Of a DNA stretch of 49,836 bases, positions 1,358-24,733 are shown one piece after another. Origin of the DNA: a virus (Duplodnaviria > Heunggongvirae > Uroviricota > Caudoviricetes); IMG/VR virus record IMGVR_UViG_2563366803_000005, positions 1-49,836 of that record; one strand, 5' to 3'. The position numbers and the translations under genes were made by a program. Numbering within the stretch: the first letter of the stretch is position 1; every line of letters starts with the position of its first letter. The notes beneath the pieces were generated by a model. The model searched no databases, was not told where the DNA came from, and saw only the letters and a program-made list of their open reading frames with translations.

Positions 1358-1418
1358 GGCTATCACTCCGGAACGCGCCAGTTGCAGAATATCAACGACA
1401 ACTGGCGACGGTTGAACA

Positions 1419-6152: not shown

Positions 6153-6153
6153 T

Positions 6154-6345: not shown

Positions 6346-6365
6346 GTTTCCTCCGGTTTTATAAC

Positions 6366-6737: not shown

Positions 6738-6834
6738 GTGGTAATTATCTTTAGTAATCACTAAACAAGCAAATACTTGACTTAATGGTTTATTAAACAC
6801 TAAACTCGCAAAAAAACACTAAACCGAGGAAGGT
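6738..6834. promoter_or_regulatory. Divergent operator/promoter region with three CACTAAAC repeats
   Basis: CACTAAAC at 6759-6766, 6798-6805 and 6817-6824. Candidate rightward promoter TTGACT (6777-6782), 18-nt spacer, TAAACT (6801-6806), its -10 overlapped by repeat 2. RBS GAGGAAGG before ATG 6835. Confidence 0.5.
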
Positions 6835-7137: not shown

Positions 7138-7559
7138 AAATCAAGCATGAACACATCCGCATGGCGATGAATGTCTGGGCGCATCCGGACGGCGAAAAAG
7201 TACCGGCTGCGAAAATTACCAAAGCGTATTTCGAGCTGGGAATGACGTTCCCGGAACTGTATGACGACAGCCATCCGGAAGCCCTGGCCCGTAATACCCA
7301 GAAAATTTTCCGTTGGCTGGATAAAGACACCCCTGATGCTGTTGAAAAAATGCAGGCTCTGTTACCGGCGATCGAAAAGGCGATGCCGCCTTTGCTGGTG
7401 GCCCGTATGCGCAGCCACAGTTCTGAATATTACCGTGAGATCGTCGAACGGAGGGATCGGCTGGTGAAGGATGTCGATGATTTTGTTGCGTCAGCGGTTG
7501 TTTTGTATGACCAGATGAATCGCGGCGGCCCGGCAGGGAATGCTGTGGTGATGCACTAA
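7134..7559 (+). CDS. CII-like / YdaT-family early regulatory protein
   Basis: 141 aa; ATGA overlap with the Cro-like gene; position and size match YdaT-like proteins in Rac-type prophages. Confidence 0.5.
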   Translation: MKIKHEHIRMAMNVWAHPDGEKVPAAKITKAYFELGMTFPELYDDSHPEALARNTQKIFRWLDKDTPDAVEKMQALLPAIEKAMPPLLVARMRSHSSEYYREIVERRDRLVKDVDDFVASAVVLYDQMNRGGPAGNAVVMH

Positions 7560-7581
7560 AAGCACGGTGTTCGGGGGTTTT

Positions 7582-8544: not shown

Positions 8545-8550
8545 CGTGTC

Positions 8551-9297
8551 ATGAAAAACATTGCGGCAGTTGGGGTTCTTGAACGTATTCGCAGACTTGC
8601 ACCACAGGGGTCGGTTCCACCGTACCGGACGGTGGAGGAGTGGCGGGAATGGCAACTTGCTGAAGGACGAAAACGCAGCGAGGAGATTAACCGCCAGAAT
8701 CGCCAGTTGCGGGTGGAAAAAATCCTGAATCGTTCGGGCATCCAGCCTCTGCACAGCAAATGCTCGTTTGCAAATTATCAGGTGCAGAACGACGGGCAAA
8801 AATACGCGCTGAGCCAGGCCAAATCCATAGCTGACGAACTGATGACCGGGTGCACGAATTTTGTGTTCAGCGGTAAAACCGGCACCGGGAAAAATCACCT
8901 TGCAGCGGCGATGGGCAACCGGCTGATGGTGAAGGGGCGCAGCGTGATTATCGTCACCGTGTCTGACGTCATGAGCGTGTTGCATGACAGCTACGACAAC
9001 GGCAAATCCGGGGAAAAATTTTTACAGGAGCTTTGCGGGGTTGATTTGCTGGTCCTGGATGAAATAGGCGTTCAGCGGGAGACGAAAAACGAGCAGGTGG
9101 TATTGCACCAGATAATTGATCGCCGGACAGCATCACTGTGCAGTGTCGGGATGTTAACAAACCTGAATCATGCCGCAATGAGTACGCTTCTTGGTGAGAG
9201 GATTATGGACCGCATGACCATGAACGGTGGTCGATGGGTGACGTTTAACTGGGATAGCTGGCGTCCAAATGTCAGCAATATGAGGGTTGTGAAGTAA
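8551..9297 (+). CDS. DnaC-like replicative helicase loader (AAA+ ATPase)
   Basis: 248 aa. Walker A GKTGTGKNHLAAA, Walker B LLVLDEIG. Immediately downstream of the O-like gene. Confidence 0.85.
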   Translation: MKNIAAVGVLERIRRLAPQGSVPPYRTVEEWREWQLAEGRKRSEEINRQNRQLRVEKILNRSGIQPLHSKCSFANYQVQNDGQKYALSQAKSIADELMTGCTNFVFSGKTGTGKNHLAAAMGNRLMVKGRSVIIVTVSDVMSVLHDSYDNGKSGEKFLQELCGVDLLVLDEIGVQRETKNEQVVLHQIIDRRTASLCSVGMLTNLNHAAMSTLLGERIMDRMTMNGGRWVTFNWDSWRPNVSNMRVVK

Positions 9298-9318
9298 TTT
9301 TGTCCGGAGGAAATTTTA

Positions 9319-10089
9319 ATGGAAACCGTATCTGACGCACTGAAAGCACTGAAAAAAGCCTCTTCACATGTGGTGGCAGCTCGCCTTGGAATCAGTCGTG
9401 AAGAGGCTGTCAACGAGCTGTGGGAACTCAAAAGAAAAGGCGTCGTTGATAAAACTGGTCACACCTGGTTTCTAGCTGGCGAAGGTGAATCCCGGGTAAC
9501 CGAAGAGCGGCCAGTAAAATCTGAAGCACAGGATATGCTGACCGGGGAGGTCGAACAAAAAGTTACCGCAGACATGATGATTGAGTTTATCGGTCAGGAT
9601 GGGGCTAAAACGTGTGAGGAACTGGCGGGTAAGTTCGGTGTCAGTACTCGCAAGGTTGCTTCCACGCTGGCGGTGGTAACCGCAACGGGGCGGCTGGCAC
9701 GCGTTAATCAGAACGGTAAATTTCGTTACTGCATGCCGGGCGATAATTTACCAGCAGAGCCGAAAGCCGCTCTGGTAACGGAAAGTGATGGTAAGGCCTT
9801 TCCTCAGCCAGCAGGTGCTGCGTTACCAGTCCGGGAAGCCGCAACACAGGAAGAAATTAAAACAGAAACTGTGGCGGACATTGTGCAGCCGTTGCCATCG
9901 TTTACCGAAACGCAAGCAGATGAGCTGATTTTTCCGTCCCTTCGCAGGGCAAACCTGGCGCTGCGCAGGGCGAAAAGTGATGTTCAGAAGTGGGAGCGAG
10001 TCTGCGCCGCGCTGCGGGAGCTGAACAAGCACCGGGATATTGTTCGACAGATTACTGATTCTTCCCGCCGTGTTGTATCGGAAAAGTGA
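9319..10089 (+). CDS. Hypothetical protein with two winged-helix-like segments
   Basis: 256 aa; RBS GGAGG upstream; function not recognisable from sequence. Confidence 0.5.
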   Translation: METVSDALKALKKASSHVVAARLGISREEAVNELWELKRKGVVDKTGHTWFLAGEGESRVTEERPVKSEAQDMLTGEVEQKVTADMMIEFIGQDGAKTCEELAGKFGVSTRKVASTLAVVTATGRLARVNQNGKFRYCMPGDNLPAEPKAALVTESDGKAFPQPAGAALPVREAATQEEIKTETVADIVQPLPSFTETQADELIFPSLRRANLALRRAKSDVQKWERVCAALRELNKHRDIVRQITDSSRRVVSEK

Positions 10090-10104
10090 TTGCCGGAGGC
10101 GCTT

Positions 10105-10437
10105 ATGGCAAAAGTATTTACACAAGAAGAGCGGGAAAAAATTAAAGGGCAGGTTGTTGAACTTGTACGTCTGAGCGGTCGCGAGACGTTGCGGCAACTG
10201 GAAGCCAAGACAGGTGCGACAAGATATCTGATGAGTGTTCTCGCCAGAGAGCTGGTTGCCAGTGGCGATGTATACAACTCTGGTTACGGGTTATTCCCGT
10301 CTGAACAGGCGCGTAAGGACTGGCAAAACGCCCGCAAAAAACTCTCAAGGGCAAATCTGAAGAAACCATCTGTGGTTGATCCTGACCTTATCTGGTCATT
10401 ACCAGACGGAGAAATACGCCGCTACGACAGGCGTTAA
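10105..10437 (+). CDS. Hypothetical protein
   Basis: 110 aa from ATG 10105 (MAKVFTQEEREKIKG…); CCGGAGG RBS. Confidence 0.5.
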   Translation: MAKVFTQEEREKIKGQVVELVRLSGRETLRQLEAKTGATRYLMSVLARELVASGDVYNSGYGLFPSEQARKDWQNARKKLSRANLKKPSVVDPDLIWSLPDGEIRRYDRR

Positions 10438-10573
10438 AACATAATCTGTAGCGAGTGCCGGAAGAGCGAAGCTATGCAGCGTGTACTGGCTTTCTATCAG
10501 GGTAATTTTCAGAAGGTGCTGTTGTGAGCCAAATTAACAATCGGAACTTCGTGAAGAGAAAGCATAATCCAAA

Positions 10574-10624
10574 TCTGAATAATTAAGTTCAGCACTGTAA
10601 ATAAAATTTAATCCTTAACTGGAG
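10574..10624 (+). repeat. Copy A of a ~50-bp repeated regulatory element (palindrome + RBS)
   Basis: CTGAATAATTAAGTTCAGCACTGTAAATAAAATTTAATCCTTAACTGGAGG; about 85% identical to copy B at 11842-11890. Contains inverted repeat ATTAAgTT…AAtTTAAT; ends in the SD for the ORF at 10633. Confidence 0.55.
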
Positions 10625-10632
10625 GTATATCT

Positions 10633-10845
10633 ATGTCAAATACACAGAAAATTATTAACACTGAAAAATATAACGAGTGGGTGAAAAAATTCTCTGAGCA
10701 GATTTTTAAAATTACTGGCGACGAGAATGTGGCAAAAAATGAATTAGAACCGTGGACACCTGAAGGAAACGCACCAAATTATTGCTGGTGGGAGGTTGAT
10801 CCGGTTGATGCTGCAAATGAAGCCATGAGTTACCACAACGATTAA
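10633..10845 (+). CDS. Hypothetical small acidic protein
   Basis: 70 aa; GGAGG RBS 7 nt upstream; follows repeat copy A. Confidence 0.45.
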   Translation: MSNTQKIINTEKYNEWVKKFSEQIFKITGDENVAKNELEPWTPEGNAPNYCWWEVDPVDAANEAMSYHND

Positions 10846-10854
10846 TGTCGGGAG

Positions 10855-10872
10855 GCCGCCCGAAAGGGCGGT
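10855..10872 (+). promoter_or_regulatory. SD-hairpin-AUG element (CCGCCC-GAAA-GGGCGG stem-loop), copy 1
   Basis: GGGAGG (10850-10855), 6-bp G/C stem with GAAA tetraloop, then ATG at 10878. The same 22-nt element recurs at 11915-11936. Confidence 0.5.
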
Positions 10873-10877
10873 AAGAA

Positions 10878-11096
10878 ATGACTACATTATTGAGAAAAGA
10901 ATATCCGCAAAAAAGTAGGGCAACAGAATTTTTGTTTCTCATTCTGTTTATCGTATTGATGATACCGATATCCCCTCTAATTTTTGTCTGGGCAATCGGG
11001 AAAATAATTGAGCCAGTTACTGAATTGTATACCGACGTTGTATGGGCGTCGTTCAACATACTGCACAATAAAATTAATCCGTATAAGGAAAACTGA
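10878..11096 (+). CDS. Hypothetical small membrane protein
   Basis: 72 aa with a long hydrophobic segment (FLFLILFIVLMIPISPLIFVWAIG); start preceded by the hairpin element. Confidence 0.45.
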   Translation: MTTLLRKEYPQKSRATEFLFLILFIVLMIPISPLIFVWAIGKIIEPVTELYTDVVWASFNILHNKINPYKEN

Positions 11097-11097
11097 T

Positions 11098-11361
11098 ATG
11101 GCAACTTTGACAAAAAAAGAACGGGCATGGTTGAACGAATTACAGGAAGTTCTTGATCGCTGTCCATCACCGAAAAAAATTGGCTTTTACACCATTGGCG
11201 ATAAAAGCATTTACCTGTATGACCTACGCCGCATGGATGAAATCATGGAGGCTCTTGATAATCGTTCGTCGATGGATTGGTGTGTTGCTGTTCATGATAT
11301 GAATGCAGGGTTTGATGAAAAGATTTTGTTCCCCTCATCAGTTGAAAGCACTGCGGGTTAA
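11098..11361 (+). CDS. Hypothetical protein
   Basis: 87 aa from ATG 11098 (MATLTKKERAWLNELQEVL…); AAGGAAA RBS; ATG 1 nt after the upstream stop. Confidence 0.5.
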   Translation: MATLTKKERAWLNELQEVLDRCPSPKKIGFYTIGDKSIYLYDLRRMDEIMEALDNRSSMDWCVAVHDMNAGFDEKILFPSSVESTAG

Positions 11362-11371
11362 GGAGTAACAC

Positions 11372-11515
11372 ATGACCACTATTACCAAAGAACGTATTGA
11401 ATTGTTCATTAAATTTTCAGGAGGCGGTACTGTGAGTGAAATTAGCTATCAGGCTTCAATTACCGCTGGCATTCGCATCAAAGGAGAGGAGCATGGAAAT
11501 AAAACCAGAGGATGA
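11372..11515 (+). CDS. Possible 47-aa micro-ORF
   Basis: Strong RBS AAGGAG 7 nt before ATG 11372 (MTTITKERIELFIKFSGGG…); overlaps the next gene start in another frame. Below the ORF-track length cutoff. Confidence 0.3.
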   Translation: MTTITKERIELFIKFSGGGTVSEISYQASITAGIRIKGEEHGNKTRG

Positions 11516-11849
11516 GTTAAGCAATATCGTTTTATTTCCGGTAAAAGAGGATGACCCTCGTAATCAGGTTAATTTTCTTTATGAGCCATCGGAAAGACCA
11601 TATTGTCATCACGCCTCTGTCCGGGTTGACGAAAAAGAGCGTCAGGTCCGCTGTAAAATCTGCGGTGCAGTTGTGGAGCCATTTGACTGGATGCTCTCTG
11701 TGGCGAAAAGAGAAACCAGACTGGCAGATGATGTAAGGCACTTGCGCCAGGAGGAGCGGGAAAGGCGAAAAAATATAGAAAAGCTAATTCAGATTGAGCG
11801 TAACGCGAAAGCGCGGATACGCAGGGCGACAAAATCCAGAACTGAATAA
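11493..11849 (+). CDS. Hypothetical protein with putative zinc-ribbon (CHH…CKIC)
   Basis: 118 aa from ATG 11493; AAGGAGAGGAG RBS; Cys/His cluster YCHHASVRVDEKERQVRCKICG; basic C-terminus. Confidence 0.5.
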   Translation: MEIKPEDELSNIVLFPVKEDDPRNQVNFLYEPSERPYCHHASVRVDEKERQVRCKICGAVVEPFDWMLSVAKRETRLADDVRHLRQEERERRKNIEKLIQIERNAKARIRRATKSRTE

Positions 11850-11890
11850 TTAAATTTAGCTCTGTTAAAAATTTAATCCTTAACCGGAGG
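11842..11890 (+). repeat. Copy B of the ~50-bp repeated regulatory element
   Basis: CTGAATAATTAAATTTAGCTCTGTTAAAAATTTAATCCTTAACCGGAGG, with perfect inverted repeat ATTAAATTT-N12-AAATTTAAT. Confidence 0.55.
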
Positions 11891-11918
11891 GATTTCTGCA
11901 CCCTCAGAACATCAGGAG

Positions 11919-11936
11919 GCCGCCCGAAAGGGCGGT
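11919..11936 (+). promoter_or_regulatory. SD-hairpin-AUG element, copy 2
   Basis: AGGAGG then CCGCCC-GAAA-GGGCGG, then ATG at 11943. Confidence 0.5.
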
Positions 11937-11942
11937 AGTTAA

Positions 11943-12125
11943 ATGCGAAAGTTTAAAATAATTATTGAAACGGGAATAGCCGGTGGAGATTTCGAGGATG
12001 AATTCGAAGTGGATGATGATGCGACGCCTGATGAAATACATGACGAAGCAAAAGATATTTTCTTTAACTACTGCAATTACTCATATCACGAAATAAAAGA
12101 CGAAGAGGAAGAGCAAAATGGCTGA
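11943..12125 (+). CDS. Hypothetical very acidic 60-aa protein
   Basis: About one third Asp/Glu (…DFEDEFEVDDDATPDEIHDE…EIKDEEEEQNG). Confidence 0.4.
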   Translation: MRKFKIIIETGIAGGDFEDEFEVDDDATPDEIHDEAKDIFFNYCNYSYHEIKDEEEEQNG

Positions 12126-12294
12126 TTTTGGTTCAACTAAATACAACGTCAGTTTTGAAGCATGGCATGAACTGTTAATGGACTATGCAGAGTTACGTGG
12201 TGGCAGTGCTGCTGATGCTGAAGCATGGCGTGATGATTATGAAGCAGGAAAAACTCCGGTCGAAGCATATTGTGATGAGTGGGGCGATGAATGA
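12118..12294 (+). CDS. Hypothetical acidic 58-aa protein
   Basis: MADFGSTKYNVSFEAWHELLMDYAELRGG…; overlaps the upstream stop and downstream start (ATGA at 12291-12294). Below the ORF-track length cutoff; found by reading the DNA. Confidence 0.4.
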   Translation: MADFGSTKYNVSFEAWHELLMDYAELRGGSAADAEAWRDDYEAGKTPVEAYCDEWGDE

Positions 12295-12680
12295 GCGAGA
12301 TTAATTATCAGGAAGGGCATGAAACGGCAGGGCAGGCAAAACCAGTTGCATGGCGATATCGCTACGTGAAAAAAGACGTTACAGACTTTCAGGGGAAGCC
12401 GTGGGCTGGTGACTGGAAATATGTACCGACAAAAGAGGATTGTAACGACAGGCCGAACTATGAAATTCAGGCCTTATTCATCGGCCCGCCAGTCCCGGTG
12501 ACATCAGAAGGACTGGTTAAAGCCGTGCGCTTTTATGAACAGGTAAAGCGTGAGAATCCGCCAGTCGAAACAGGAGCATGGAAGGATGCTGTTGACTGGG
12601 TGCTCAGAGAGGCCTGCTGCGCTGCCATTCTGGGTAAGCCGACAATCCACCAGCATCCGGCAATCAGGTTAGCGAATTAA
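12291..12680 (+). CDS. Hypothetical protein
   Basis: 129 aa; translationally coupled to neighbours; no recognisable motif. Confidence 0.5.
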   Translation: MSEINYQEGHETAGQAKPVAWRYRYVKKDVTDFQGKPWAGDWKYVPTKEDCNDRPNYEIQALFIGPPVPVTSEGLVKAVRFYEQVKRENPPVETGAWKDAVDWVLREACCAAILGKPTIHQHPAIRLAN

Positions 12681-12682
12681 CA

Positions 12683-12805
12683 ATGTGGGTTAAACGACTG
12701 GTCAGTCAACTGAAAAAAGCTCAGCCGGACTGCAAATTACCGGAGAAGGCGATGGATTACCTGAAACGAAATGGACTGATAAGCGTGGAGGATGTTTTAC
12801 GATGA
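12683..12805 (+). CDS. Possible 40-aa micro-ORF
   Basis: ATG 12683 two nt after the upstream stop (MWVKRLVSQLKKAQPDCKLPEKAMDYLKRNGLISVEDVLR). Confidence 0.25.
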   Translation: MWVKRLVSQLKKAQPDCKLPEKAMDYLKRNGLISVEDVLR

Positions 12806-12925
12806 ATATTTAGACTAAAGAGTTTGTAACGCTATGTAAGTGATTTTTTCTGGTTTAGATATTTATATGTCCGGCCAAATTGAGGTGTGTTTAAATGTTA
12901 TTGCACATTGATTGTAGGGGGAATA

Positions 12926-13105
12926 ATGAAAAACGCATTGCAGTTTTTGTTTGTTGCGTTCTGGTTGTTCGCATCATGTATGCCCATCATCTTCACAGCA
13001 AGGTATATGGAAAAAATTGATGTTTTGATATTAATGTTTGGACATATAAATGCCCTTTTTTTAGGGGTGTTCATGGCGGTCATGTGCATTGAATACTGGC
13101 GGTAA
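12926..13105 (+). CDS. Hypothetical small membrane protein
   Basis: 59 aa from ATG 12926 (MKNALQFLFVAFWLFASCMPIIF…); RBS AGGGGGA; two hydrophobic segments; AT-rich. Confidence 0.4.
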   Translation: MKNALQFLFVAFWLFASCMPIIFTARYMEKIDVLILMFGHINALFLGVFMAVMCIEYWR

Positions 13106-13363
13106 ATACAGCGAACGCCATTGGTTTAGTTGGATATTTACTGTGCCGGACAAAAACGGTTTGCGGGGAAATCTTAGTTAAGTAGAATGACTGCGGGTGC
13201 TTGAGGCTATCTGTCTCAGGCATGAACACCAAAAGGCAGATAGAGAAAAGCCCCAGTTAACATTACGCGTCCTGCAAGACGCTTAACATTAATCTGAGGC
13301 CATATCTATGCGACACATAGAGATTAGCCTCTTACGGACCGAAAGGTCAAGGAGAAGCAGGCT

Positions 13364-13519
13364 ATGAAGCAGCAAAAGGCGATGTTAATCGCCCTGATCG
13401 TCATCTGTTTAACCGTCATAATGACGGCACTGGTAACGAGGAAAGACCTCTGCGAGGTACGAATCCGAACCGGCCAGACGGAGGTCACTGTCTTCACAGC
13501 TTACGAACCTGAGGAGTAA
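13364..13519 (+). CDS. hok: Hok/Gef-family type I toxin
   Basis: 51 aa (MKQQKAMLIALIVICLTVIMTALVTRKDLCEVRIRTGQTEVTVFTAYEPEE); Hok pattern with one TM helix and LTRK-x-LCE-x-R motif. A 19-codon upstream ORF (13308-13367) ends in ATGA overlapping the hok start. Confidence 0.8.
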   Translation: MKQQKAMLIALIVICLTVIMTALVTRKDLCEVRIRTGQTEVTVFTAYEPEE

Positions 13520-15387: not shown

Positions 15388-15950
15388 GCGTAAATATGAT
15401 ATATCCGGAAATTACAGGCAAAAGCGGCGAGCATTTACGTCTAAAAACGCTGGAAGCAGTCTGGATCCAGGGGAAATTACGGATGTGGGGGCGGTGGTCG
15501 TATATTGGCGGCGGTAAGACGGGAAATATGTTCAACCAATTACTGACCTCTAAAAAGCTGACAAAAACGGCAATTAACGAGGCGCTCCGGAGGATGAAAA
15601 AAGCTGGTCTGGACAAACCTGAACTTGAGGCTTTTTTGCGGGATATGATCAACGGCAATCAAAAAAGCTGGCTGGCACATTGTACCGATTCAGAGGCGTT
15701 AATAATCGACAGGGTTATTGGTGAAGTCCTGGCAGGCTATCCCGGGCTGCTCAATGTCCTGAGTCAGCGTTATGTGGGGCGGGGGATGACTAAGCGCAAA
15801 ATGGCTGAACTGCTGAATGATGCACACCCGGAATGGAGTTTAAGAACCTGTGAAAGACGCATTGAGCATTGGCTAAAGGTGGCAGAATTTATTTTGTACA
15901 AACCAATGGTTATGGCTTTTGGTATAGAGAAAAAAGTTATTGCTTTTTGA
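15384..15950 (+). CDS. Putative late-gene antiterminator (Q-like, called by position)
   Basis: 188 aa directly after rusA and followed about 80 bp downstream by a strong terminator; start could be GTG 15384 or ATG 15396. Family not confirmed by motif. Confidence 0.5.
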   Translation: MSVNMIYPEITGKSGEHLRLKTLEAVWIQGKLRMWGRWSYIGGGKTGNMFNQLLTSKKLTKTAINEALRRMKKAGLDKPELEAFLRDMINGNQKSWLAHCTDSEALIIDRVIGEVLAGYPGLLNVLSQRYVGRGMTKRKMAELLNDAHPEWSLRTCERRIEHWLKVAEFILYKPMVMAFGIEKKVIAF

Positions 15951-16026
15951 CGTAAAAACTGCTTCAATTCCGGTACGCTTCGCAAAGCTGTACCACGAGG
16001 CGAATAGCAGACATGGACATTTGAAA

Positions 16027-16052
16027 GAGCCCGCTTTTTGCGGGTTTTTTTA
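16027..16052 (+). terminator. tR'-like rho-independent terminator downstream of the Q-like gene
   Basis: CCCGC-TTTTT-GCGGG hairpin (16030-16044) followed by T7. Confidence 0.6.
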
Positions 16053-16174
16053 TGCCTGAAAAACGGCACAGAACATTAAACGCGCTGGTGGTTGCGAATA
16101 CCGGTCTTTCAGCTTGCTGGCTTTTCCGACAAGAGTTATTGGTATGTTACGTTAACCAGAAAAGGGAAAAAGAC

Positions 16175-16372
16175 ATGCTAAAACAGCAGGATATGACCGA
16201 AACCGCCAGAGTGGTGTTTAATGAGTTAAGCGTCACCGAACCGGCGACAGTCGGGGAGATTGCACAGAATACTTACCTTTCACGCGAACGCTGCCAGTTA
16301 ATACTGACCCAGCTTGTTATGGCGGGTCTGGCAGACTATCAGTTTGGTTGTTACAGACACCTTCAGTCCTGA
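16175..16372 (+). CDS. Hypothetical small protein
   Basis: 65 aa from ATG 16175 (MLKQQDMTETARVVFNELSVTEPATVGEIAQ…); its stop codon lies inside a terminator hairpin. Confidence 0.4.
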   Translation: MLKQQDMTETARVVFNELSVTEPATVGEIAQNTYLSRERCQLILTQLVMAGLADYQFGCYRHLQS

Positions 16373-16385
16373 AGGCTTTTTTATT
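16360..16385 (+). terminator. Rho-independent terminator
   Basis: CCTTCA-GTCC-TGAAGG followed by CTTTTTTATTT. Confidence 0.5.
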
Positions 16386-16756
16386 TGTGGTAAATGGGCG
16401 GCTGGTGGGTGTGGTGGTTGTTGCTTTCCCGTTGCTGAAAAAGAAAACGCCAGACTGTTAGCCGGGTATCAGTTATCTGGAGAAATTTTTAAATACCTCA
16501 CAATTCAGGCGGTTGACTGTTGTCTGGTTTGCGGGGAGTTTGTTAAAAGAAACTGGTATGGTGAATCCCCCTGTGCGGAGGGGCAATCAGCAACTGGTGT
16601 TTTGTCACCGACCCTTATCCTTTCTGTGCGGGTTCAGGTGCTGATACTGAACTCACCGGGAGGCACCCGGCATCATGCAATGGCACATAGCGCCACTCTC
16701 CAGCCCCTCTCCGGAGGGGCTGTTTATATTGATTTTGTCAGATGTGAGTAAACTCC

Positions 16757-17092
16757 TTATGGACTTTGTTGTTTTAGTCCATAAGGACATATTTGCAGAG
16801 TGCAACGGTTATTAAAGCATTCATTCAATACGTTATCTGTATTTGTAGGACATTCCTGGCTGTTTTTGATTAAATTCCAGAATGTTTTATTGAATGGTAC
16901 TACGTTGTAAATGGTTAAAGGTAGCACTTTGTTATTGAGCATGATACCTGTGTGAGTCAGTGTAAATATACTTTCAGGAGGTAAGAAAGCATCCGATTGA
17001 TACCAGATTATTAATTTTATTTTACTCCATATGACTGAAAAAGATATTCCGCATGATGGCTGGATAACTGTATCAATCACAATCCACTTCAT
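16757..17092 (-). CDS. AT-rich antisense moron, hypothetical Cys-containing protein
   Basis: 111 aa; AAGGAAA RBS before ATG 17092. Markedly AT-rich. A perfect 11-bp inverted repeat (16755-16786, CCTTATGGACT…AGTCCATAAGG) spans its stop codon. Confidence 0.45.
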
Positions 17093-17337
17093 TTAGTTTC
17101 CTTGTTTATGTCTTGCTGGTGATGTTCTGAAAAGTATAAATGATATTTTTGAATGTAAACCATAGAGCAGAATTATTTTTCTGATGTTGTTTATTGTTTA
17201 TTTAAATGCAGGGTGGTTTATATCTCGTCTTGTAGTTTATCCATGCATATCTGCTTGATGATGAGGTTTTTATTTAAGGTATGGTTTTGTGTTTTTTCTG
17301 TATTACATGTCAGGTATTTTAAAGAATTATTTTTCAG

Positions 17338-19314
17338 ATGGTGGAAAGAACCATGGCATTTAAACACTATGATGTTGTCAGGGCGGCATCGCCGTCAGAC
17401 CTTGCGAAACGACTGACACAAAAACTGAAGGAGGGGTGGCAGCCATTTGGCAGTCCGGTGGCCATCACGCCTTATACCCTGATGCAGGCCATTGCGGCGG
17501 AAGGTGATGTCACCACACCTGTGGTGGTGAAGCCGTCGGATGGAGAAGGCGCAGTTATCAGCACCACCAGCAACCCGGAGTATTACTTTGTTGTTGCCCT
17601 GGCCGGGCAGTCAAACGGTATGGCGTATGGTGAAGGGCTTCCGCTGCCGGAGACATATGACCGTCCGGACCCGCGTATTAAACAGCTGGCGCGTCGCAGC
17701 ACTGTCACGCCGGGTGGTGCGTCCTGTAACTACAATGACATTATTCCTGCGGACCACTGCCTGCATGATGTTCAGGATTTGAGTAAGTTTTCACACCCGA
17801 AAGCCAGCGCAGCTCAGTATGGATGCGTGGGGCAGGGATTACATATCGCGAAGAAATTGTTGCCGTTTATTCCGGCGAATGCCGGTATTCTTCTGGTTCC
17901 GTGCTGCCGTGGTGGTTCTGCATTTTTGGCGGGCGATGAAGGTACCTTCAGCGAATCCACCGGCGCAAGCGAGACCTCGGCACGCTGGGGTGTTGATAAG
18001 CCACTGTACAAGGACCTGCTTACCCGTACTCAGGCCGCACTGAAGGCCAACCCTAAAAATATTCTGCTTGCAGTGGTCTGGATGCAGGGCGAGTTTGATT
18101 TGAAACAGGGTGCATACGCCACTCAGCCGGGGCTGTTTGATTCCATGGTGGAAAAATATCGTTCTGACCTGTCGGAATTCGGAGGTCAGTGTCTCGGGGG
18201 CTCTCCGTCATCGGTTCCCTGGATTTGTGGCGACACGACCTACTACTGGAAGCAGACTTATTCTTCGCAATACGATGCGGTGTATGGTGCATACAAGACG
18301 AAATCCGCAAAAAAAATCTTCTTTGTGCCGTTTATGACGGATGAAAACGGGCGAAATGTGGGTACCAACGAGCCGTCAGAAGATCCGGATGTTGCGGATG
18401 TTGGGTATTACGGAGCCGGTGGTCGAACGGACGCCAAAACCTGGACGACGGCCGACCGTAAAACGCATTTTGGATCATGGGCACGTCGTGGGATTATTTC
18501 CGACCGTCTGGCAACGGCGATTCTTGTGCATGCCGGGAGAAACGCTGAATTCATTACCGGAAAACAGCCTGATACGGTGAAGCCCACCGGACCTTCCGGT
18601 GAAGGTACGGAGAGAGAGCCGGAAGCCCCGGTCAGTAACCGAACCCTGATGAGTCTGCTGGCGTCCGGCGAAGACCTGGCATCACAGGGCTGGCGCTATT
18701 ATCACAAACCGGCGAGCGGAGACAATGTTAACAAAAACATTGCTGAAGCGGTGGTCAGTGATGCGGGGGCTACGGGAGGTAAGGCCCTGCAACTGAATAA
18801 ACCGGAAAACCACATCTGGTTTCTGGAGCATGATGCAGCCGGACAGGGAGTGGAGTTACTGAAGAAGGGGGGACGTGTGAGCGTACGGTTTAAGTTGCCG
18901 GGTTCACTGGTGCCGAATCAGTTTGCCCTGGGCATTTACTGGCAGTTGTCGTCCCTGCCGGAGGGAGTGACGCTGGCAGAGGAAGGCAACGACATGCTGA
19001 TGTCCTTCTTCCTGCAGACGGATGCGACGAACCTGAACGCGATGCACCACAAGAAGCCGAATGCGAAGCTGGATACGTTCGGGGTCTTTGATAACGGATG
19101 GCACACACTGGCTTTTGAGTTTGCCGGAAACAACAGCATTCAGGTGACGCCGGTACTGGATGAGAAACGGGGGACGCCGTTCACACTGGTGAAATCTCCG
19201 GCATCAGGGGCGGCGGACAAACTGCAACTGACAGGCATATCAAAGGCGGCGACATATACGCTGCTGATTGACAGTGTGAAGGTGGAAGTGAACAACGCGG
19301 ACATCGCGGCATGA
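17338..19314 (+). CDS. nanS: Prophage sialate O-acetylesterase (NanS-p-like, SGNH/SASA domain) with C-terminal extension
   Basis: 658 aa (alternative start ATG 17353). GQSN motif (…VALAGQSNGMAYGEG…); C-terminal about 250 aa is beta-rich. Occupies the position downstream of Q where such esterases sit in Stx-type prophages. Confidence 0.75.
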   Translation: MVERTMAFKHYDVVRAASPSDLAKRLTQKLKEGWQPFGSPVAITPYTLMQAIAAEGDVTTPVVVKPSDGEGAVISTTSNPEYYFVVALAGQSNGMAYGEGLPLPETYDRPDPRIKQLARRSTVTPGGASCNYNDIIPADHCLHDVQDLSKFSHPKASAAQYGCVGQGLHIAKKLLPFIPANAGILLVPCCRGGSAFLAGDEGTFSESTGASETSARWGVDKPLYKDLLTRTQAALKANPKNILLAVVWMQGEFDLKQGAYATQPGLFDSMVEKYRSDLSEFGGQCLGGSPSSVPWICGDTTYYWKQTYSSQYDAVYGAYKTKSAKKIFFVPFMTDENGRNVGTNEPSEDPDVADVGYYGAGGRTDAKTWTTADRKTHFGSWARRGIISDRLATAILVHAGRNAEFITGKQPDTVKPTGPSGEGTEREPEAPVSNRTLMSLLASGEDLASQGWRYYHKPASGDNVNKNIAEAVVSDAGATGGKALQLNKPENHIWFLEHDAAGQGVELLKKGGRVSVRFKLPGSLVPNQFALGIYWQLSSLPEGVTLAEEGNDMLMSFFLQTDATNLNAMHHKKPNAKLDTFGVFDNGWHTLAFEFAGNNSIQVTPVLDEKRGTPFTLVKSPASGAADKLQLTGISKAATYTLLIDSVKVEVNNADIAA

Positions 19315-19670
19315 TAAAAAAAGCCGCCAGCGGTAGGAATGGAAGCTGGCGGAGGTAATCCCAATGGAGAATGTAAAGAAAAGATGCTTTCGACATCAAT
19401 CATTTCTAAATGAAAGCAGTTCTCATTGTCAACCATAACGGTAAGAAATTATGACATTTATTCATCAGGTAATGCTGTACTTCTGTATGGCAGTCTGTGT
19501 TATGTATCTTCTTTCGGGTGGGTACAGGGCAGTGCGCGATTTCTGGCGCAGGCAGATTGATAAAAGGGCCGCTGAGAGAATCAGCGCCAGTCAGTCAGCC
19601 GGAAGCAAACCCGAAGATCCGCTCATTCCGTAGTCACTTTCTTGACAACACCTTTCAACGAGAAAATCCC

Positions 19671-19916
19671 ATGTCAGAAATCACATCCCTGGTCACTGCT
19701 GAGGCAGTGAAGGAAGTCCTGCGCTCTGAAGAAGTCCTGAGCGCACTGAAACAGAAACTCCGCCAGAACCTTGAGTCGCGTCTTGATGCAGAAGTGGATG
19801 CCATTCTGGATGAGCTGCTGGGCGTACCAGCGGTTCCGGAGCCGGAAGGTATCGCGGGTGACGGGAGTGCTTCAGATGGCGGTGAACCCACACCTGACAG
19901 CGACATGATGATGTAA
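19671..19916 (+). CDS. Hypothetical small acidic protein
   Basis: 81 aa from ATG 19671 ([23 protein letters not shown]…); weak RBS. Confidence 0.35.
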
Positions 19917-19992
19917 GCCTGCGCAAGGGACCATCGGTGTGTGCCGGTGGTCTTTATATTGTTGTGAGCTTCCGGATAACGGGAGACGGGGT

Positions 19993-20208
19993 ATGTACCA
20001 GATGGAAAAAATCACAACAGGTGTGTCATACACCACGTCAGCGGTGGGAACGGGCTACTGGTTCCTGCAGTTGCTGGACAGGGTTTCCCCGTCTCAGTGG
20101 GCGGCAATAGGCGTGCTGGGGAGTCTGCTGTTTGGGCTGCTGACGTACCTGACTAACCTGTATTTCAAAATCAAAGAGGACCGGCGTAAGGCGGCGCGGG
20201 GAGAGTAA
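19993..20208 (+). CDS. S: Holin (class I/II phage holin with dual-start motif)
   Basis: 71 aa ([11 protein letters not shown]…), two in-frame Met separated by two codons, hydrophobic segments and charged C-terminus ([13 protein letters not shown]). RBS GGGAGACGGGG. Confidence 0.8.
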
Positions 20209-20212
20209 AGTG

Positions 20213-21103
20213 ATGAATAAAAAATATGAACTGGTTGTTAAGGGGATAAATAATTACGGGGATAAGGTTACTGTTACTGTGAAGCCGGAAGGTGACGGGC
20301 AAGCGTCGCTGTTGTTGCCAGATGTGGCGATTAGTCTTGACCGTACTGAAGGTGCCACGCTGGAGTTTTACGAAGCTGAGGCGAAAAAGCAGGCGAAGCA
20401 GTTTTTCATGGATGTTGCTGCCGGGTTATGTGAATGGAACGAACCGTTGCCGGAAAAGCGCCCCGTAATTTTAGAGGCGCAGGATGTGTTGATAACCTAC
20501 AAAGGAAAGCTACCGGGAAGAATTACTTGTTCTCTGAAGATGCCGCCGTCAACACTGCGGTCAGAAAAAGATGATGTTGAATCACGTATTGAAAAACTGG
20601 AGAGCTACGTCGTTGAGCTGAATAAGAAATGGTCGATATTGGTGCCTTCTGGCGATGAAAAGCAGTTTGCTGCGTTTGACGATTATTGTCGGAAAGTGAT
20701 GAGCAGAAATCTCGCAGAGTGTTTCAGTATTCATAATGATAATTTCAGTGACCCGGAATGGGAGTGTAACCGGCCATCCTTTGTTGTATCCGGTGATGCT
20801 GGGAAAATAACCATCTCAGAAAATGGGAAAGTAACACCTCCATCGCACCAGCACAGTGAGGAGCTCATTGAATTTGCCATTGATTACCTGAAGAACAATA
20901 AAAAGCAGGGGCTGATGAAGCGCGTTGGCCGTTGCATGGGATATCTTCAGGTAGCCGCTGAGATTGAAGCGCTGGCCAGTGGTGCTGATAAGGATGCAAT
21001 TGTGCGGGAGGCTCTTCTTCGTGATTTTAATACTCCACCCTTTAAAAAAGTGCCGGCTTACTGGCTTCATCCGGGGCTGACTTATCTTAAAGTGCGTATT
21101 TAG
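20213..21103 (+). CDS. Uncharacterised 296-aa protein inserted between holin and endolysin
   Basis: ATG 20213 (GTG 20210) five nt after the holin stop; RBS GGGGAGAG. No TM segment or catalytic motif recognised. Confidence 0.6.
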   Translation: MNKKYELVVKGINNYGDKVTVTVKPEGDGQASLLLPDVAISLDRTEGATLEFYEAEAKKQAKQFFMDVAAGLCEWNEPLPEKRPVILEAQDVLITYKGKLPGRITCSLKMPPSTLRSEKDDVESRIEKLESYVVELNKKWSILVPSGDEKQFAAFDDYCRKVMSRNLAECFSIHNDNFSDPEWECNRPSFVVSGDAGKITISENGKVTPPSHQHSEELIEFAIDYLKNNKKQGLMKRVGRCMGYLQVAAEIEALASGADKDAIVREALLRDFNTPPFKKVPAYWLHPGLTYLKVRI

Positions 21104-21139
21104 TGGGCCAGGGACAGCGGCTGAATATTTAATATATCC

Positions 21140-21673
21140 ATGAACACCAAAATCAAATACGGCCTGTCGGCTGCCGTTCTGGCGCTGATTGCCGCTGGTG
21201 CGCCTGCGCCTGACATTCTCGACCAGTTTCTGGATGAAAAGGAAGGCAACCACACCACGGCATACCGTGATGGTGCAGGTATCTGGACCATCTGCCGTGG
21301 TGCCATCATGGTGGATGGCAAACCTGTCGTTCCGGGCATGAAGTTGTCGAAGGAAAAATGCGACCAGGTTAATGCCATTGAACGGGATAAGGCGCTGGCA
21401 TGGGTGGAGCGCAATATTAAAGTTCCACTGACCGAACCACAGAAAGCGGGTATAGCGTCATTCTGTCCCTATAACATTGGTCCCGGTAAGTGTTTCCCGT
21501 CGACGTTTTACAGACGAATTAATGCTGGTGATCGAAAAGGTGCCTGCGAAGCGATTCGCTGGTGGATTAAGGACGGTGGCAGAGACTGCCGTATTCGTTC
21601 AAACAACTGTTACGGTCAGGTATCCCGTCGTGACCAGGAGAGCGCGCTGGCGTGCTGGGGTATCGACAGATAA
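21140..21673 (+). CDS. R: SAR endolysin (T4-lysozyme-like muramidase, GH24)
   Basis: 177 aa. N-terminal signal-anchor-release segment (KYGLSAAVLALIAAGAPAP) and catalytic E-x8-D-x5-T (EGNHTTAYRDGAGIWTICRG). Confidence 0.85.
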   Translation: MNTKIKYGLSAAVLALIAAGAPAPDILDQFLDEKEGNHTTAYRDGAGIWTICRGAIMVDGKPVVPGMKLSKEKCDQVNAIERDKALAWVERNIKVPLTEPQKAGIASFCPYNIGPGKCFPSTFYRRINAGDRKGACEAIRWWIKDGGRDCRIRSNNCYGQVSRRDQESALACWGIDR

Positions 21674-21829
21674 GCAGAATATTTTGCTGAAAAATGAGGA
21701 ATGGCCACGCGGGCGGATAACACGAAATCCTGCGAACTGGCGAAACGTAAGTGAATAAAAGTAAAAACCCCGTTTGTTGGCACCAAGCGAGGTTTTGTGT
21801 TTCTGACCTTGAGTAAGGCAAGGGAGAAC

Positions 21830-22012
21830 ATGGCGAAGTGTAAACGAATTCTGTTGAGGTTGACTATGAAAAATGGCCTTGAACTGAAAGCGCCTGTAAC
21901 TGATGACATCAGCAGAGCACTGGCTTTTGCCATTAAGTGGGTGGCGGTCGGTGTTGCTGTGTCCCCGATGCTGTATGGGCTGGCAAAACTGGTCATTGCG
22001 TTGAAATCGTGA
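21830..22012 (+). CDS. Hypothetical small membrane protein
   Basis: 60 aa from ATG 21830; AAGGGAGAA RBS; C-terminal hydrophobic helix. Confidence 0.35.
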
Positions 22013-22026
22013 AGGGAGGATTAAGC

Positions 22027-22158
22027 ATGTCAGACAAACTCATAACGCTGGCGAAGATCCTCTGTGTAATTGTCGGCATTTCATTTTCACTAATGCTGGT
22101 TGCTCTTTTTCTTTCCATGGCCTGGATGATGTTGTCTTCGTCGGGGTTGCTGGGGTGA
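22027..22158 (+). CDS. Hypothetical 43-aa membrane peptide
   Basis: Strong RBS GAAGGGAGGA before ATG 22027 ([43 protein letters not shown]). Confidence 0.3.
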
Positions 22159-22628
22159 ACATAAACCGAATGCTTTCCGCGTTTATCGTTATTCTGCTGG
22201 TGGCCTGTGGTGCGCTGTGGATGGCAACAGACCATTACCGTGATAACGCGATTACCTACAAAGCGCAGCGCGATAACAAAGCCAGTGAACTGAAGCTGGC
22301 GAACGCAACCATTACTGATATGCAGGTGCGCCAGCGCGATGTTGCTGCGCTCGATGCAAAATACTCGAGGGAATTAGCCGATGCGAGAGCTGAAAATGAA
22401 ACTCTTCGCGCTGACGTTGCCGCTGGTCGTAAGCGCCTGCGGATCAACGCCACCTGTCCAGGCTCCGTGCGTGAAGCCCCCACCACCTCCGGCGTGGATA
22501 ATGCAACCGGCCCCCAACTGGCAGACACCGTTACACGGGATTATTTCACCCTCAGAGAGCGGCTGATGACGATGCACAAGCAACTGGAAGGGGCACAGGA
22601 CTATATCCGCACTCAGTGCCTGAAATAA
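22155..22628 (+). CDS. Rz: i-spanin Rz
   Basis: 157 aa (or 152 from ATG 22170); N-terminal TM then coiled-coil periplasmic domain; contains the embedded Rz1 frame. Confidence 0.8.
22396..22566 (+). CDS. Rz1: o-spanin Rz1 (embedded lipoprotein)
   Basis: 56 aa from ATG 22396 in the +1 frame inside Rz: lipoprotein signal ([15 protein letters not shown]) and proline-rich mature part ([16 protein letters not shown]). Confidence 0.75.
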
Positions 22629-22938
22629 GTTTTGTTGATGCGCCGTATCGTCGCTATATTCCCTCATTAACAGAGACCGCAGCCCGACAGGGAGACTCCT
22701 CTGCGCGAGTGTGCGGGGATAATTAAAAACGATGCACACCGGGTTTTTACCGCGTTAATGATTCGCGGGTTTATCCCGGTGCGATGGTGGAAGAAACAGG
22801 AAGCTGTATTACAGAAAGTGCTACTACTGTATCCCGATGCGATGTATGTAATGTGAGTCAGATAATGGCACAGGATGTGGTGATGTGGCAGTCTGGAACA
22901 CAGGATATATTGTCAGAATAAGACCCGTAGGAATAAAA

Positions 22939-23265
22939 ATGAAAAGACGCCTTTTACTACTTTTTCTGTTATCTGTCCTGGCAGTGGGATGCTCGCAGCA
23001 AAAAGCTGATGAGCCCCGGCAATTAGTGACGGTGTATCCACGATATCCGGAATATGCTGCAGCAAATTATATCAAGGGGCTGGTTGAGGTTAAGTTCGAT
23101 ATTGGTGCTGATGGGACTGTGACACGGATCGTTTTTCTCCGCTCAGAGCCTCATAATTTGTTTCGTGATGAAGTGGTGAAGGCCATGGCGAAATGGCGAT
23201 TTGAAAAGAATCGCCCCTGTCAGGGAGTGAAGAGACAATTTATCTTTACGCCGTCACGTCCTTGA
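22939..23265 (+). CDS. Lipoprotein with TonB C-terminal-like domain
   Basis: 108 aa from ATG 22939: signal peptide plus lipobox (LSVLAVGC); mature part follows the TonB-C pattern (YPxxAxxxxIxGxVxVxFxIxxDGxVxxIxxLxS…AxxWRF). Confidence 0.55.
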   Translation: MKRRLLLLFLLSVLAVGCSQQKADEPRQLVTVYPRYPEYAAANYIKGLVEVKFDIGADGTVTRIVFLRSEPHNLFRDEVVKAMAKWRFEKNRPCQGVKRQFIFTPSRP

Positions 23266-23387
23266 TGCTTCCAGGTAGAGAGGGGCTGGACGCAGGAGAA
23301 AAATGAAAGAGCCAGCGGTTATATTTTTGTCATGGCTGACGAGGAATGATGGAAGAAGGCGTTGTATGCCACACAACGCCTCACTGT

Positions 23388-23567
23388 TCATTTCTTCTTT
23401 TTCTCTGGTGGAACCCGATGAATAAGAGTTGCACTGGTTTCCGATGAGATGGCGATATACTCGGGCAAAGTATGCTGGCAGTTTTCCAACTGGTCAAAAA
23501 TACCTGCTCTCGTCTGTTGCAATGCCTGCAGCATGCGGCGGCAATGCGCCTTGCTTTTACTAACCAT
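23388..23567 (-). CDS. Hypothetical protein
   Basis: 59 aa from ATG 23567 (MVSKSKAHCRRMLQALQQTRAG…); AGGA RBS; lysine-rich C-terminus; minus strand between lysis cassette and cos. Confidence 0.3.
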   Translation of the reverse strand: MVSKSKAHCRRMLQALQQTRAGIFDQLENCQHTLPEYIAISSETSATLIHRVPPEKKKK

Positions 23568-23628
23568 CTTTCCTTCCTCTATCAGTCGCTGCGTGAACTC
23601 ATCATGTAATACCAGGTAAATGCGGATG

Positions 23629-23880
23629 TTATCGGTTTTGGCTACGCAGCATAGTACAAAACGGACAGGTGCATCCCGGGACGGGGGAGGTGTCACATGT
23701 CCCTGTGATGGTTGTTCCGGGTAATGCACTGTGTGGGGCATAAAAATGTCCGATAATTTTACTTTCTACCGCAGTTAGTTGATTCGTTGGTCCTGGTAGC
23801 ACATTGGGCGAGGATTTAAATGCCAGGCAACTGAAGGATGATGTTGCAAGGGAGATAGCGAGAATATTTCTGATTTTCAT
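23629..23880 (-). CDS. Hypothetical secreted protein
   Basis: 83 aa from ATG 23880 with N-terminal signal-like segment (MKIRNILAISLATSSFSCLA); Cys-rich C-terminus. Confidence 0.35.
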   Translation of the reverse strand: MKIRNILAISLATSSFSCLAFKSSPNVLPGPTNQLTAVESKIIGHFYAPHSALPGTTITGTCDTSPVPGCTCPFCTMLRSQNR

Positions 23881-24028
23881 TTGATGATGCCTCTGTGTGA
23901 AATGACGGTAAACGACGCACTTGTGCCGGCACATAATAGCAAGCACCATAATAGATCAGATTCGATTCTTGCTGTAAGTGATAATTATTCTCGTTTTCGG
24001 GTCCTTTCCGTCGATCCAACAGGTTACG

Positions 24029-24040
24029 GGGCGGCGACCT
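24029..24040 (+). other. cosN cohesive-end site (lambda-type)
   Basis: GGGCGGCGACCT followed by CGCGGGTTTTCGCTATTTATGAAAATTTTCCGG, matching the lambda left end as recalled; preceded by …AGGTTACG; cosB-like region continues to about 24200. Confidence 0.8.
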
Positions 24041-24223
24041 CGCGGGTTTTCGCTATTTATGAAAATTTTCCGGGAACCATGTCCGGTTTCTCTTCAAGTT
24101 AACTATATGAAAAATAAAAAAAGAGGTCTTCTGTGAACCGGACATGCACAAAAAATAGACATGTAAGCCGGACATGACCGGTTTTGTTGTGATTGTGAAG
24201 TGAGAGTTTTTGCGAGGTGAGGA

Positions 24224-24733
24224 GTGGCTACGCAGACTGAAGTTGCCAGGCATTTAAGTCTGACCGATCGCCAGCTTCGCAGATTGCAGAAATTGCCGGG
24301 TGCCCCGATATCGAATAAGCGAGGGCAACTGGATCTGGATGCCTGGCGCGATTTTTACATATCGTATCTGAGAAGAAGTAAAAACGATGTGCCTGATGGC
24401 GATAGCGAAGACGACTATGAGGAGAAATTGCTTATTGCCAGATGGGAACTGACAGCAGAACAGGCTGTTACACAGCAGTTAAAAAATGAGGTGTCAAAAG
24501 GAAAACTTATTGATACCGGGTTCTGTATTTTTGCCCTCAGCAAGCTGGCAATGGCGTTATCCAGTACGCTTGATTCCATCCCTTTATCCATGCAGCGACA
24601 GTTTCCTGATTTAACACCGCGCCATCTTGACCATCTGAAAACCCTTATTGCGAAGGGGGCAAATCAGTGTGCGCGGGCGGGGGATAAATTACCGGATTTA
24701 CTCGATGAATATATCAGAGCAACAACTGAATAA
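24224..24733 (+). CDS. nu1: Terminase small subunit (Nu1-like)
   Basis: 169 aa from GTG 24224 (RBS GAGGTGAGGA). N-terminal HTH; C-terminus resembles lambda Nu1 (…FALSKLAMALSSTLDSIPLSMQRQFPDL…). Confidence 0.8.
   Translation: MATQTEVARHLSLTDRQLRRLQKLPGAPISNKRGQLDLDAWRDFYISYLRRSKNDVPDGDSEDDYEEKLLIARWELTAEQAVTQQLKNEVSKGKLIDTGFCIFALSKLAMALSSTLDSIPLSMQRQFPDLTPRHLDHLKTLIAKGANQCARAGDKLPDLLDEYIRATTE

Follow-up and report, generated by a model that had tools for sequence, protein, structure and literature searches.

[quoted passage not shown] As judged from comparison with related phages, it is an optional accessory ('moron-like') gene, dispensable for lysis and outside the lysis machinery. It is possible, at a probability that we put at about 0.3, that its product is a late cytoplasmic accessory factor whose DUF1327 module acts on RNase E or RNA and whose C-terminal domain supplies a second activity.

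The original prediction described the protein as uncharacterised and as having no recognisable motif. The first description is accurate, the YdfR/DUF1327 family being one without an established function, and the second is wrong. Residues 1–100 match Pfam DUF1327 (PF07041; profile positions 1–88 of 93, E 2.8e-40, 136.9 bits with a gathering cut-off of 25), and PHROG 1085 covers the protein from end to end (residues 1–296 against profile positions 1–296, E 6.8e-190); none of the NCBIfam models matches the 296-aa protein. The exact protein occurs on 746 contigs, where its RefSeq name is 'YdfR family protein'. Among complete E. coli genomes, a gene at least 99% identical was found in 418 records; at least 80% of the gene is covered in 496 of 5426 such genomes, and 2703 of them match it at least in part. 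Of 50,697 phage records, 100 contain DUF1327 (all temperate E. coli phages, H-19B included), and just five contain the C-terminal domain. An exhaustive HMMER search over 1.84 billion cluster representatives yielded only 74 clusters. A scan of species-representative genomes with a narrow back-translated pattern gave three loci, and the taxonomic range was taken from the protein searches instead.

The best known relative is YdfR of E. coli K-12 (b1555), which is encoded in the Qin cryptic prophage and gave 47% identity across residues 1–74 by BLASTP (E 6e-21). The two proteins share a homologous N-terminal domain and the RefSeq family name. However, K-12 YdfR is a protein of 103 aa that consists of the DUF1327 core and a short basic helix, whereas the window protein continues beyond the core with a linker, a coiled coil, and a conserved C-terminal domain of approximately 110 aa that lies outside Pfam. 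Searching the literature for 'DUF1327' returned one incidental mention and for 'ydfR' one relevant paper (PMC13232886), and a search on genes between holin and endolysin in lambdoid phages found nothing about the ydfR gene.

Alignments of 35 (A1) and 14 (A2) homologues, together with two AF2 runs, define a three-part architecture for the protein (Table 1). The DUF1327 core is acidic (pI 4.6–4.8). The middle part (aa 77–184) is a mosaic, with indels and allele swaps in both A1 and A2. The C-terminal domain, when modelled alone from a 45-sequence alignment (A3), gave an AF2 pLDDT of 85.5 and a pTM of 0.79, and 16 of its positions are invariant in A2 (H214, I223, L226, G239, R240, L245, Q246, A248, A249, P276, K278, W284, P287, G288, Y291, and L292). 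Pairwise Nei-Gojobori estimates of dN/dS were 0.16–0.37 for this domain, approximately 0.6 for the N-terminal domain, and 0.4–0.9 for the middle. Because dN/dS is lowest there, the C-terminal domain is the most constrained part of the protein, and it is under purifying selection.

Homology search and structure prediction identified DUF1327 and no fold relative, and PDB, fold, and Pfam searches found no sequence or fold relative for either domain. Across all 45 members of A3, Pfam at E ≤ 1 gave no consistent family besides DUF1327, leaving the C-terminal domain without a Pfam family. PDB sequence searches with profiles A1 and A3 returned coiled-coil noise only (E ≥ 0.09). The full-length AF2 model, which is poor (pLDDT 52), gave nothing below E 0.34 in a Foldseek search against the PDB, and the fold search with the C-terminal domain gave no significant structural relative.

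The 296-aa ORF proposed in the original prediction was confirmed to the nucleotide on the plus strand, from an ATG at 20213 to a TAG at 21101–21103; an alternative start is the GTG at 20210. The low dN/dS of the C-terminal domain, the Salmonella homologues described below, and the occurrence of the exact protein on so many contigs together establish that 20213–21103 is a genuine protein-coding gene. The protein had also been described as soluble, with which its highest 19-residue Kyte-Doolittle mean, 0.75, agrees; hydropathy and inspection of the sequence revealed no signal peptide, no lipobox, and no hydrophobic or transmembrane segment, and the pI of the whole protein is 5.95. No Rfam match was found inside 20213–21103. 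A reverse-strand ORF at 20816–21253 (145 aa), which overlaps the 3′ end of the gene, was considered and rejected: the substitution pattern, with dN/dS of 0.16–0.37, is that of the forward frame, and the PGAP annotation calls no gene there. A discrete mobile-element insertion with recognisable ends was likewise dropped, as no inverted or attachment-like repeats were found at the flanks of the gene.

Table 1. Positions in the window of the YdfR-family gene, its parts, and the surrounding late-operon features
Feature	Position	Strand	Basis or remark
Q-like antiterminator gene	15396–15950		DUF1133 and Phage_antitermQ
Late-promoter leader RNA and tR′ (as read here)	16527–16731	+	Rfam STnc100, 131.7 bits
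NanS-p-type esterase gene	17338–19314	+	Same late operon
Class II (phage 21 S-type) pinholin gene (S), 71 aa	19993–20208	+	PF04971 (Phage_holin_2_1), E 6.8e-33; MYQMEK dual start
Shine-Dalgarno GGGGAG (including GGAG, 20200–20203)	20198–20203	+	Within the final holin codons, 9 nt 5′ of the ATG
Long-form YdfR-family gene, 296 aa and stop	20213–21103	+	ORF, PF07041, PHROG 1085
DUF1327 core, aa 1–76	20213–20440	+	Three beta-strands and one long helix; AF2 pLDDT 64–85; pI 4.8
Variable middle: linker (aa 77–112), coiled-coil helix (aa ~114–143), helix (aa 149–171)	20441–20764	+	AF2, low pLDDT
Conserved C-terminal domain, aa ~185–296	20765–21100	+	Beta-meander and four helices, AF2
SAR endolysin gene (R), R21-like lysozyme, 177 aa	21140–21673	+	PF00959 (Phage_lysozyme), E 1.1e-24
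Rz	22155–22628		Downstream of the endolysin gene
Rz1	22381–22566		Downstream of the endolysin gene

It had been proposed that the gene is expressed late in infection together with the lysis genes, and our results support this. The STnc100 match ends in a strong terminator-like hairpin (16701–16722), and we read the match and the hairpin as the pR′ leader and tR′, that is, as the point where the late operon containing the gene begins. The leader is followed on the plus strand by the genes for the NanS-p-type esterase, DUF1378, DUF826, the holin, the YdfR-family protein, and R. A consensus scan, which weak or alternative promoters could escape, found no sigma-70-like site on the plus strand in 15800–24300. 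The Q-like antiterminator gene, the leader with tR′, the lack of a predicted plus-strand promoter, and the Shine-Dalgarno sequence embedded in S together support late expression along with the lysis genes under the control of Q. In the window S, ydfR, and R follow each other closely: 4 nt separate the TAA stop of the holin gene (20206–20208) from the ATG of ydfR, and a spacer of 36 nt separates the ydfR stop from the endolysin start. PGAP labels the pinholin on identical DNA 'class II holin family protein'. The translation of the endolysin gene shows a Gly/Ala-rich, SAR-like N-terminal segment and E35/D44/T50, which are known features of the R21 SAR endolysin.

The original prediction regarded the gene as an odd interruption of a normally contiguous lysis cassette. 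This was not supported; the S–R junction is polymorphic and often filled, in K-12 too, where the Qin order is essQ (class II holin)–ydfR–rrrQ (lysozyme). The holin–ydfR–endolysin order is found in approximately 100 sequenced phages, and in all 80 of the E. coli-type IMG/VR loci examined, which were retrieved by the C-domain motif, it is the S–R slot that holds the gene where the flanks are present. The S/R pair of the window was found in 371 phage records, only three of which cover the long form. In an evenly spaced sample of 60 of the 371 records, S directly abuts R (750-bp span) in 37, including 933W and VT2-Sakai, and a short YdfR (~114 aa) is present in 12. The same S/R pair thus occurs with a long, a short, or no ydfR, and the slot is optional.

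The S and R of 933W and VT2-Sakai are 92–94% identical to those of the window, as are those of many other Stx2a phages, likewise without an insert. Given that such nearly identical S and R genes are directly adjacent in 933W and VT2-Sakai, the insert is optional. In 933W, the ATG of R lies 4 nt past the S stop, preceded by the same GGAG that forms part of the Shine-Dalgarno sequence of ydfR in the window. The long ydfR of the window occupies the translation start used by R in 933W, and R of the window has a different, AT-rich leader. The 296-aa protein contains none of the lysis-machinery features that we looked for (transmembrane or SAR segment, lipobox, muralytic domain), and DUF1327 is its only Pfam match.

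Comparison of alleles indicates that DUF1327 and the C-terminal domain are separable modules, which are fused, split, or alone in different prophages. In some E. coli prophages, a stand-alone 213-aa gene product, made up of the C-module and the coiled coil, is encoded directly after the holin; next comes a separate DUF1327 gene of 75 aa, which has a ribosome-binding site of its own. In others a 185-aa C-module is encoded by the sole gene between holin and lysozyme, and the short YdfR (~114 aa) stands alone in many phages, e.g. as ORF47 of BP-4795. The mosaic middle gives long alleles of 268, 287, 296, 305, and 325–333 aa. Truncated forms of 114, 162, 170, 183, and 211 aa also occur, and the fragments have separate PHROGs. 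PGAP treats the identical DNA of strain C7 as a truncated YdfR pseudogene, with no annotation over the final 184 codons. The long YdfRs of Stx phages (Stx2 phage 86 gp05, 268 aa; Stx2_95 BCI50300, 329 aa; PHROG 1085) share with the window protein the three-part architecture, the S–R slot, and the C-terminal domain, but they have other linker and coiled-coil lengths and other N-domain alleles. Stx2 phage 86 also has a reverse-strand gene, phrog_1853, before R, whereas the window has none.

A profile search identified the distant clusters as Salmonella enterica prophage proteins annotated as 'hypothetical protein' (e.g. P0142, P0150, P0155, and P0167). Their N-terminal domains were not recognised in a Pfam scan and are homologous to DUF1327 by hhalign (probability 93%, E 2.8e-07). 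At 28–44% identity to the E. coli form, these proteins keep the full three-part architecture, coiled coil included, and their C-terminal domains are 35–47% identical to that of the window protein. The Salmonella genes lie between the antiterminator gene Q, which is followed by hicAB on the reverse strand, and a holin gene that belongs to another family (PF16080); they precede this holin gene by one to three genes. The Salmonella homologues thus resemble the window protein in the DUF1327-like N-terminal domain, the coiled coil, the C-terminal domain, and the late-operon location, but their genes are not found between holin and endolysin. From these gene orders, what is conserved across genera is a place close to the lysis genes in the late operon governed by Q, rather than the S–R junction.

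The small reverse-strand gene phrog_1853 (~105 aa) lies directly downstream of the long ydfR in Stx2 phage 86 (gp06) and in Salmonella loci, with 43–46% identity, and 24 of the 80 IMG/VR loci have it next to the 268-aa allele. Its conservation beside the long form in both E. coli and Salmonella suggests that ydfR and phrog_1853 may form a two-gene cassette that has moved between sites; no phrog_1853 partner is present in the window.

A lysis regulator was among the roles first proposed for the protein. An obligatory regulator is unlikely, given the closely related S/R pairs that lack the insert and the position of the Salmonella homologues outside the S–R junction. A non-essential cytoplasmic modulator of lysis timing, similar to RIII of T4 and binding the cytoplasmic tail of the pinholin or affecting translation of the endolysin, would fit several observations, although we consider it unlikely. 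T4 RIII is a precedent for a cytoplasmic antiholin. The gene fills the S–R slot in every one of the 80 E. coli-type loci, the Salmonella homologues also stand no more than three genes before a holin gene, the window gene is translated from the 3′ end of the holin gene, the ydfR stop of K-12 overlaps the rrrQ start, and R in YdfR-carrying cassettes has an AT-rich leader without an obvious Shine-Dalgarno sequence. Against this, phages with 92–94% identical S and R do without the insert, hence the protein can be a modulator at most; S and R do not co-vary with the presence of the gene; the Salmonella homologues pair with the PF16080 holin family from another position; and the protein lacks a transmembrane segment. 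Accessory cargo such as stx and nanS-p is moreover usually found between Q and the lysis genes, so that proximity is weak evidence. Like known accessory lysis regulators, such as T4 RIII, the S21-71 antiholin, and the endolysin regulators of phage Mu (PMC9239132), the gene sits in a lysis cassette and is expressed together with those for a pinholin and a SAR endolysin; unlike them, it encodes a protein that has neither a transmembrane segment nor homology to these regulators, it is dispensable, since the same S/R pair functions without it in phages of the 933W type, and its position relative to the holin gene varies across genera. Somewhat less likely again is that the gene is a selfish or neutral mosaic passenger, possibly decaying, a recombinant of a YdfR gene and a neighbouring gene that is functionless in this allele. 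The extreme mosaicism, the many truncated forms and separate fragment PHROGs, the pseudogene call in strain C7, and the existence of the two modules as separate genes elsewhere would all be expected of such a passenger, but it is hard to reconcile with an architecture conserved between E. coli and Salmonella at 28–44% identity, with purifying selection and 16 invariant residues in the C-terminal domain, and with an intact 296-aa allele found unchanged on 746 contigs and with at least 99% identity in 418 records of complete genomes.

Prophage accessory slots often carry defence genes, and anti-phage defence, superinfection exclusion, or abortive infection had also been suggested; the protein could also be imagined as the late half of a module with a reverse-strand partner, given that phrog_1853 lies beside long YdfRs in phage 86 and Salmonella prophages and in 24 of 80 IMG/VR loci. 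In a search of PADLOC-DB v2, the best match of the window protein was PbeC, which is not significant (E 0.018, 11.3 bits), and no matches were obtained for the Salmonella homologues, the split-form homologues, or the phrog_1853 neighbours. A weak match to PDC-S51 (E 2.5e-05) belonged to an unrelated 95-aa reverse-strand neighbour at another locus. A defence or exclusion role is thus unsupported and in our judgement very improbable: members of the family lack significant PADLOC matches, no promoter of the gene's own is predicted, the phrog_1853 partner is missing from the window, late-only expression is ill suited to acting in a lysogen, and K-12 ydfR is near-silent in normal growth and non-toxic when overexpressed (PMC13232886). 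The least probable of the suggested roles, to which we give hardly any weight, is that of a protein that is released at lysis and acts outside the cell like Stx and NanS-p, which are encoded in operons of the same type. The gene does share its late operon with a NanS-p-type esterase gene, homologues occur in Stx phages, and with no signal peptide the protein could leave the cell only through phage lysis; yet it shows no similarity to an enzyme, toxin, or binding fold, and the reported partner of the family, RNase E, is cytoplasmic (PMC13232886).

The sole experimental information on the YdfR family, a lead that the original prediction did not foresee, comes from a study of the K-12 protein (PMC13232886, 2026). 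Residues 1–72 of YdfR were recovered three times in a two-hybrid screen, and a signal was obtained only with RNase E constructs containing the catalytic half (Rne 1–597); in binding only constructs with the catalytic half, YdfR is like RapZ (PMC13232886). In addition, Rne 1–598 co-eluted with Strep-YdfR, and DNase-resistant nucleic acid co-purified with YdfR, with the authors' caveat that the RNA could have been held by a contaminant (PMC13232886). Overexpression of YdfR was non-toxic and changed few transcripts, and ydfR was silent in normal growth, with almost no RNA-seq reads (PMC13232886). Residues 1–72 of K-12 YdfR correspond to the DUF1327 core that it shares with the window protein.

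By analogy with these results, a late cytoplasmic factor acting on RNase E or RNA might work as follows. As part of a late operon in a lambdoid prophage of E. coli, the gene would be transcribed only upon Q-mediated antitermination. Translation would use the Shine-Dalgarno sequence at the 3′ end of the holin gene, and the protein would build up in the cytoplasm alongside the lysis proteins. Its DUF1327 module might then dock on RNA or on the N-terminal, catalytic half of RNase E, in the manner reported for the K-12 protein; we give this step low confidence. Docking would place the C-terminal module at the machinery of RNA decay during late infection, and the outcome may be an adjustment of the stability or processing of particular transcripts without global inhibition of RNase E. 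Because YdfR overexpression changed few transcripts, RNase E is unlikely to be strongly affected on a global scale, and the acidic DUF1327 core does not favour direct RNA binding. Several considerations speak against a role at RNase E. The data come from one study, of a homologue that has 103 aa and shares only 47% identity, the co-elution could be RNA-bridged, nothing links the C-terminal domain to RNA, and the persistent proximity to a holin gene in two genera could mean a lysis-related role.

If the K-12 result transfers, the window protein would resemble known binders or modulators of RNase E (RapZ and RraA/RraB of the host; T7 gp0.7, T4 Srd, and phiKZ Dip) in being a small, phage-borne protein that contacts the enzyme. 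PDB searches gave no sequence or fold match between the window protein and RNase E modulators. To our knowledge, none of the known phage RNase E modulators is encoded by a late-operon gene of a temperate phage.

Both the family and the holin–ydfR–endolysin arrangement were already known. To this annotation our analysis adds a conserved C-terminal domain, delimited here and outside Pfam, and its occurrence fused to DUF1327, split from it, or alone; an architecture, but not a position, in common with Salmonella prophages; and the finding that this S/R pair also functions where the gene is absent. The DUF1327 part, at least, is detectable in approximately half of complete E. coli genomes, the family is present in many Shiga-toxin phages, and expression of the gene coincides with toxin production and lysis. 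Should the lead on RNase E prove true, prophages would have a common route to host RNA decay on induction, which could affect the expression of stx and of the lysis genes. The remaining interest of the gene lies in its strongly conserved C-terminal domain, in the fusion and fission of this domain with DUF1327, and in the RNase E lead. A bolder view, distinctly unlikely at present, is that the long YdfRs constitute an unrecognised class of late effectors of temperate phages, in which the acidic DUF1327 would tether the conserved C-terminal domain, acting as an enzyme or a binding module, to the catalytic core of RNase E and thereby reprogramme RNA decay during the final minutes before lysis, in some phages perhaps together with phrog_1853 as a mobile two-gene cassette. 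The invariant residues of such a C-terminal domain would include H214, R240, Q246, K278, W284, and Y291.

Long-form YdfR is annotated inconsistently by RefSeq/PGAP. In the record of E. coli strain C7 (locus L023), where the gene is 100% identical to that of the window, only the first 336 nt (20001-20336, corresponding to 20213-20548 of the window) are annotated; the label given by PGAP is that of a YdfR pseudogene, 'incomplete, missing C-terminus', and the conserved C-terminal domain is left without annotation.

In the ydfR-carrying cassettes, the leader of the endolysin gene R (21104-21139 in the window) is AT-rich (…TTTAATATATCCATG) and contains no obvious Shine-Dalgarno sequence, whereas R of the Stx phage 933W, in which S and R are adjacent, is translated with a strong Shine-Dalgarno sequence located at the end of S. 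The N-terminus of R also differs slightly, being MNTKIKYG in the ydfR-carrying cassettes and MSRKLRYG in 933W. Further downstream, neither of the two small ORFs between the SAR endolysin gene and Rz gave a match in Pfam, and the position that they hold in the window is occupied by an ant gene in 933W and in BP-4795, a phage with a short YdfR.

Features in and around the lysis region, in the window unless another locus is named
Feature	Position	Strand	Evidence or remark
dicB, relBE, YdaT-family toxin gene, hokD	early region, 1-13500		PGAP on identical DNA
STnc100, full-length match	16527-16731	+	Rfam, 131.7 bits; strong terminator hairpin at end
IraM-like anti-adapter gene	16757-17092	-	PGAP on identical DNA; between tR' and nanS-p-like esterase gene
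ORF, 60 aa, predicted membrane protein	21830-22012	+	PGAP: hypothetical protein
ORF, 43 aa, predicted membrane protein	22027-22158	+	PGAP: hypothetical protein
Lipoprotein-like protein (MKRRLLLLFLLSVLAVGCSQ...), TonB C-terminal domain	22939-23265	+	PF03544, E 7.3e-13
phrog_1853 gene, ~105 aa (other loci compared)	L002 4085-4399; L017 5807-6124; L015 2378-2713	-	directly 3' of long YdfR homologues

The phrog_1853 gene is not found in the window. Its protein products in the E. coli Stx2 phage 86 and in Salmonella prophages share 43-46% identity, although the site of the pair of long YdfR and phrog_1853 in the late operon differs between phage 86 and the Salmonella prophages. The gene for the TonB-domain protein was found again in related prophage loci; lambda and 933W carry bor at about its position, 3' of Rz/Rz1.

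Upstream of the lysis genes, the STnc100 match lies shortly 3' of the Q-like gene. This match, together with its hairpin, is compatible with tR' and the leader RNA transcribed from the late promoter of the prophage. Accessory genes are abundant in this lambdoid prophage, given the IraM-like gene and the early-region genes listed in the table, all of them annotated by PGAP.
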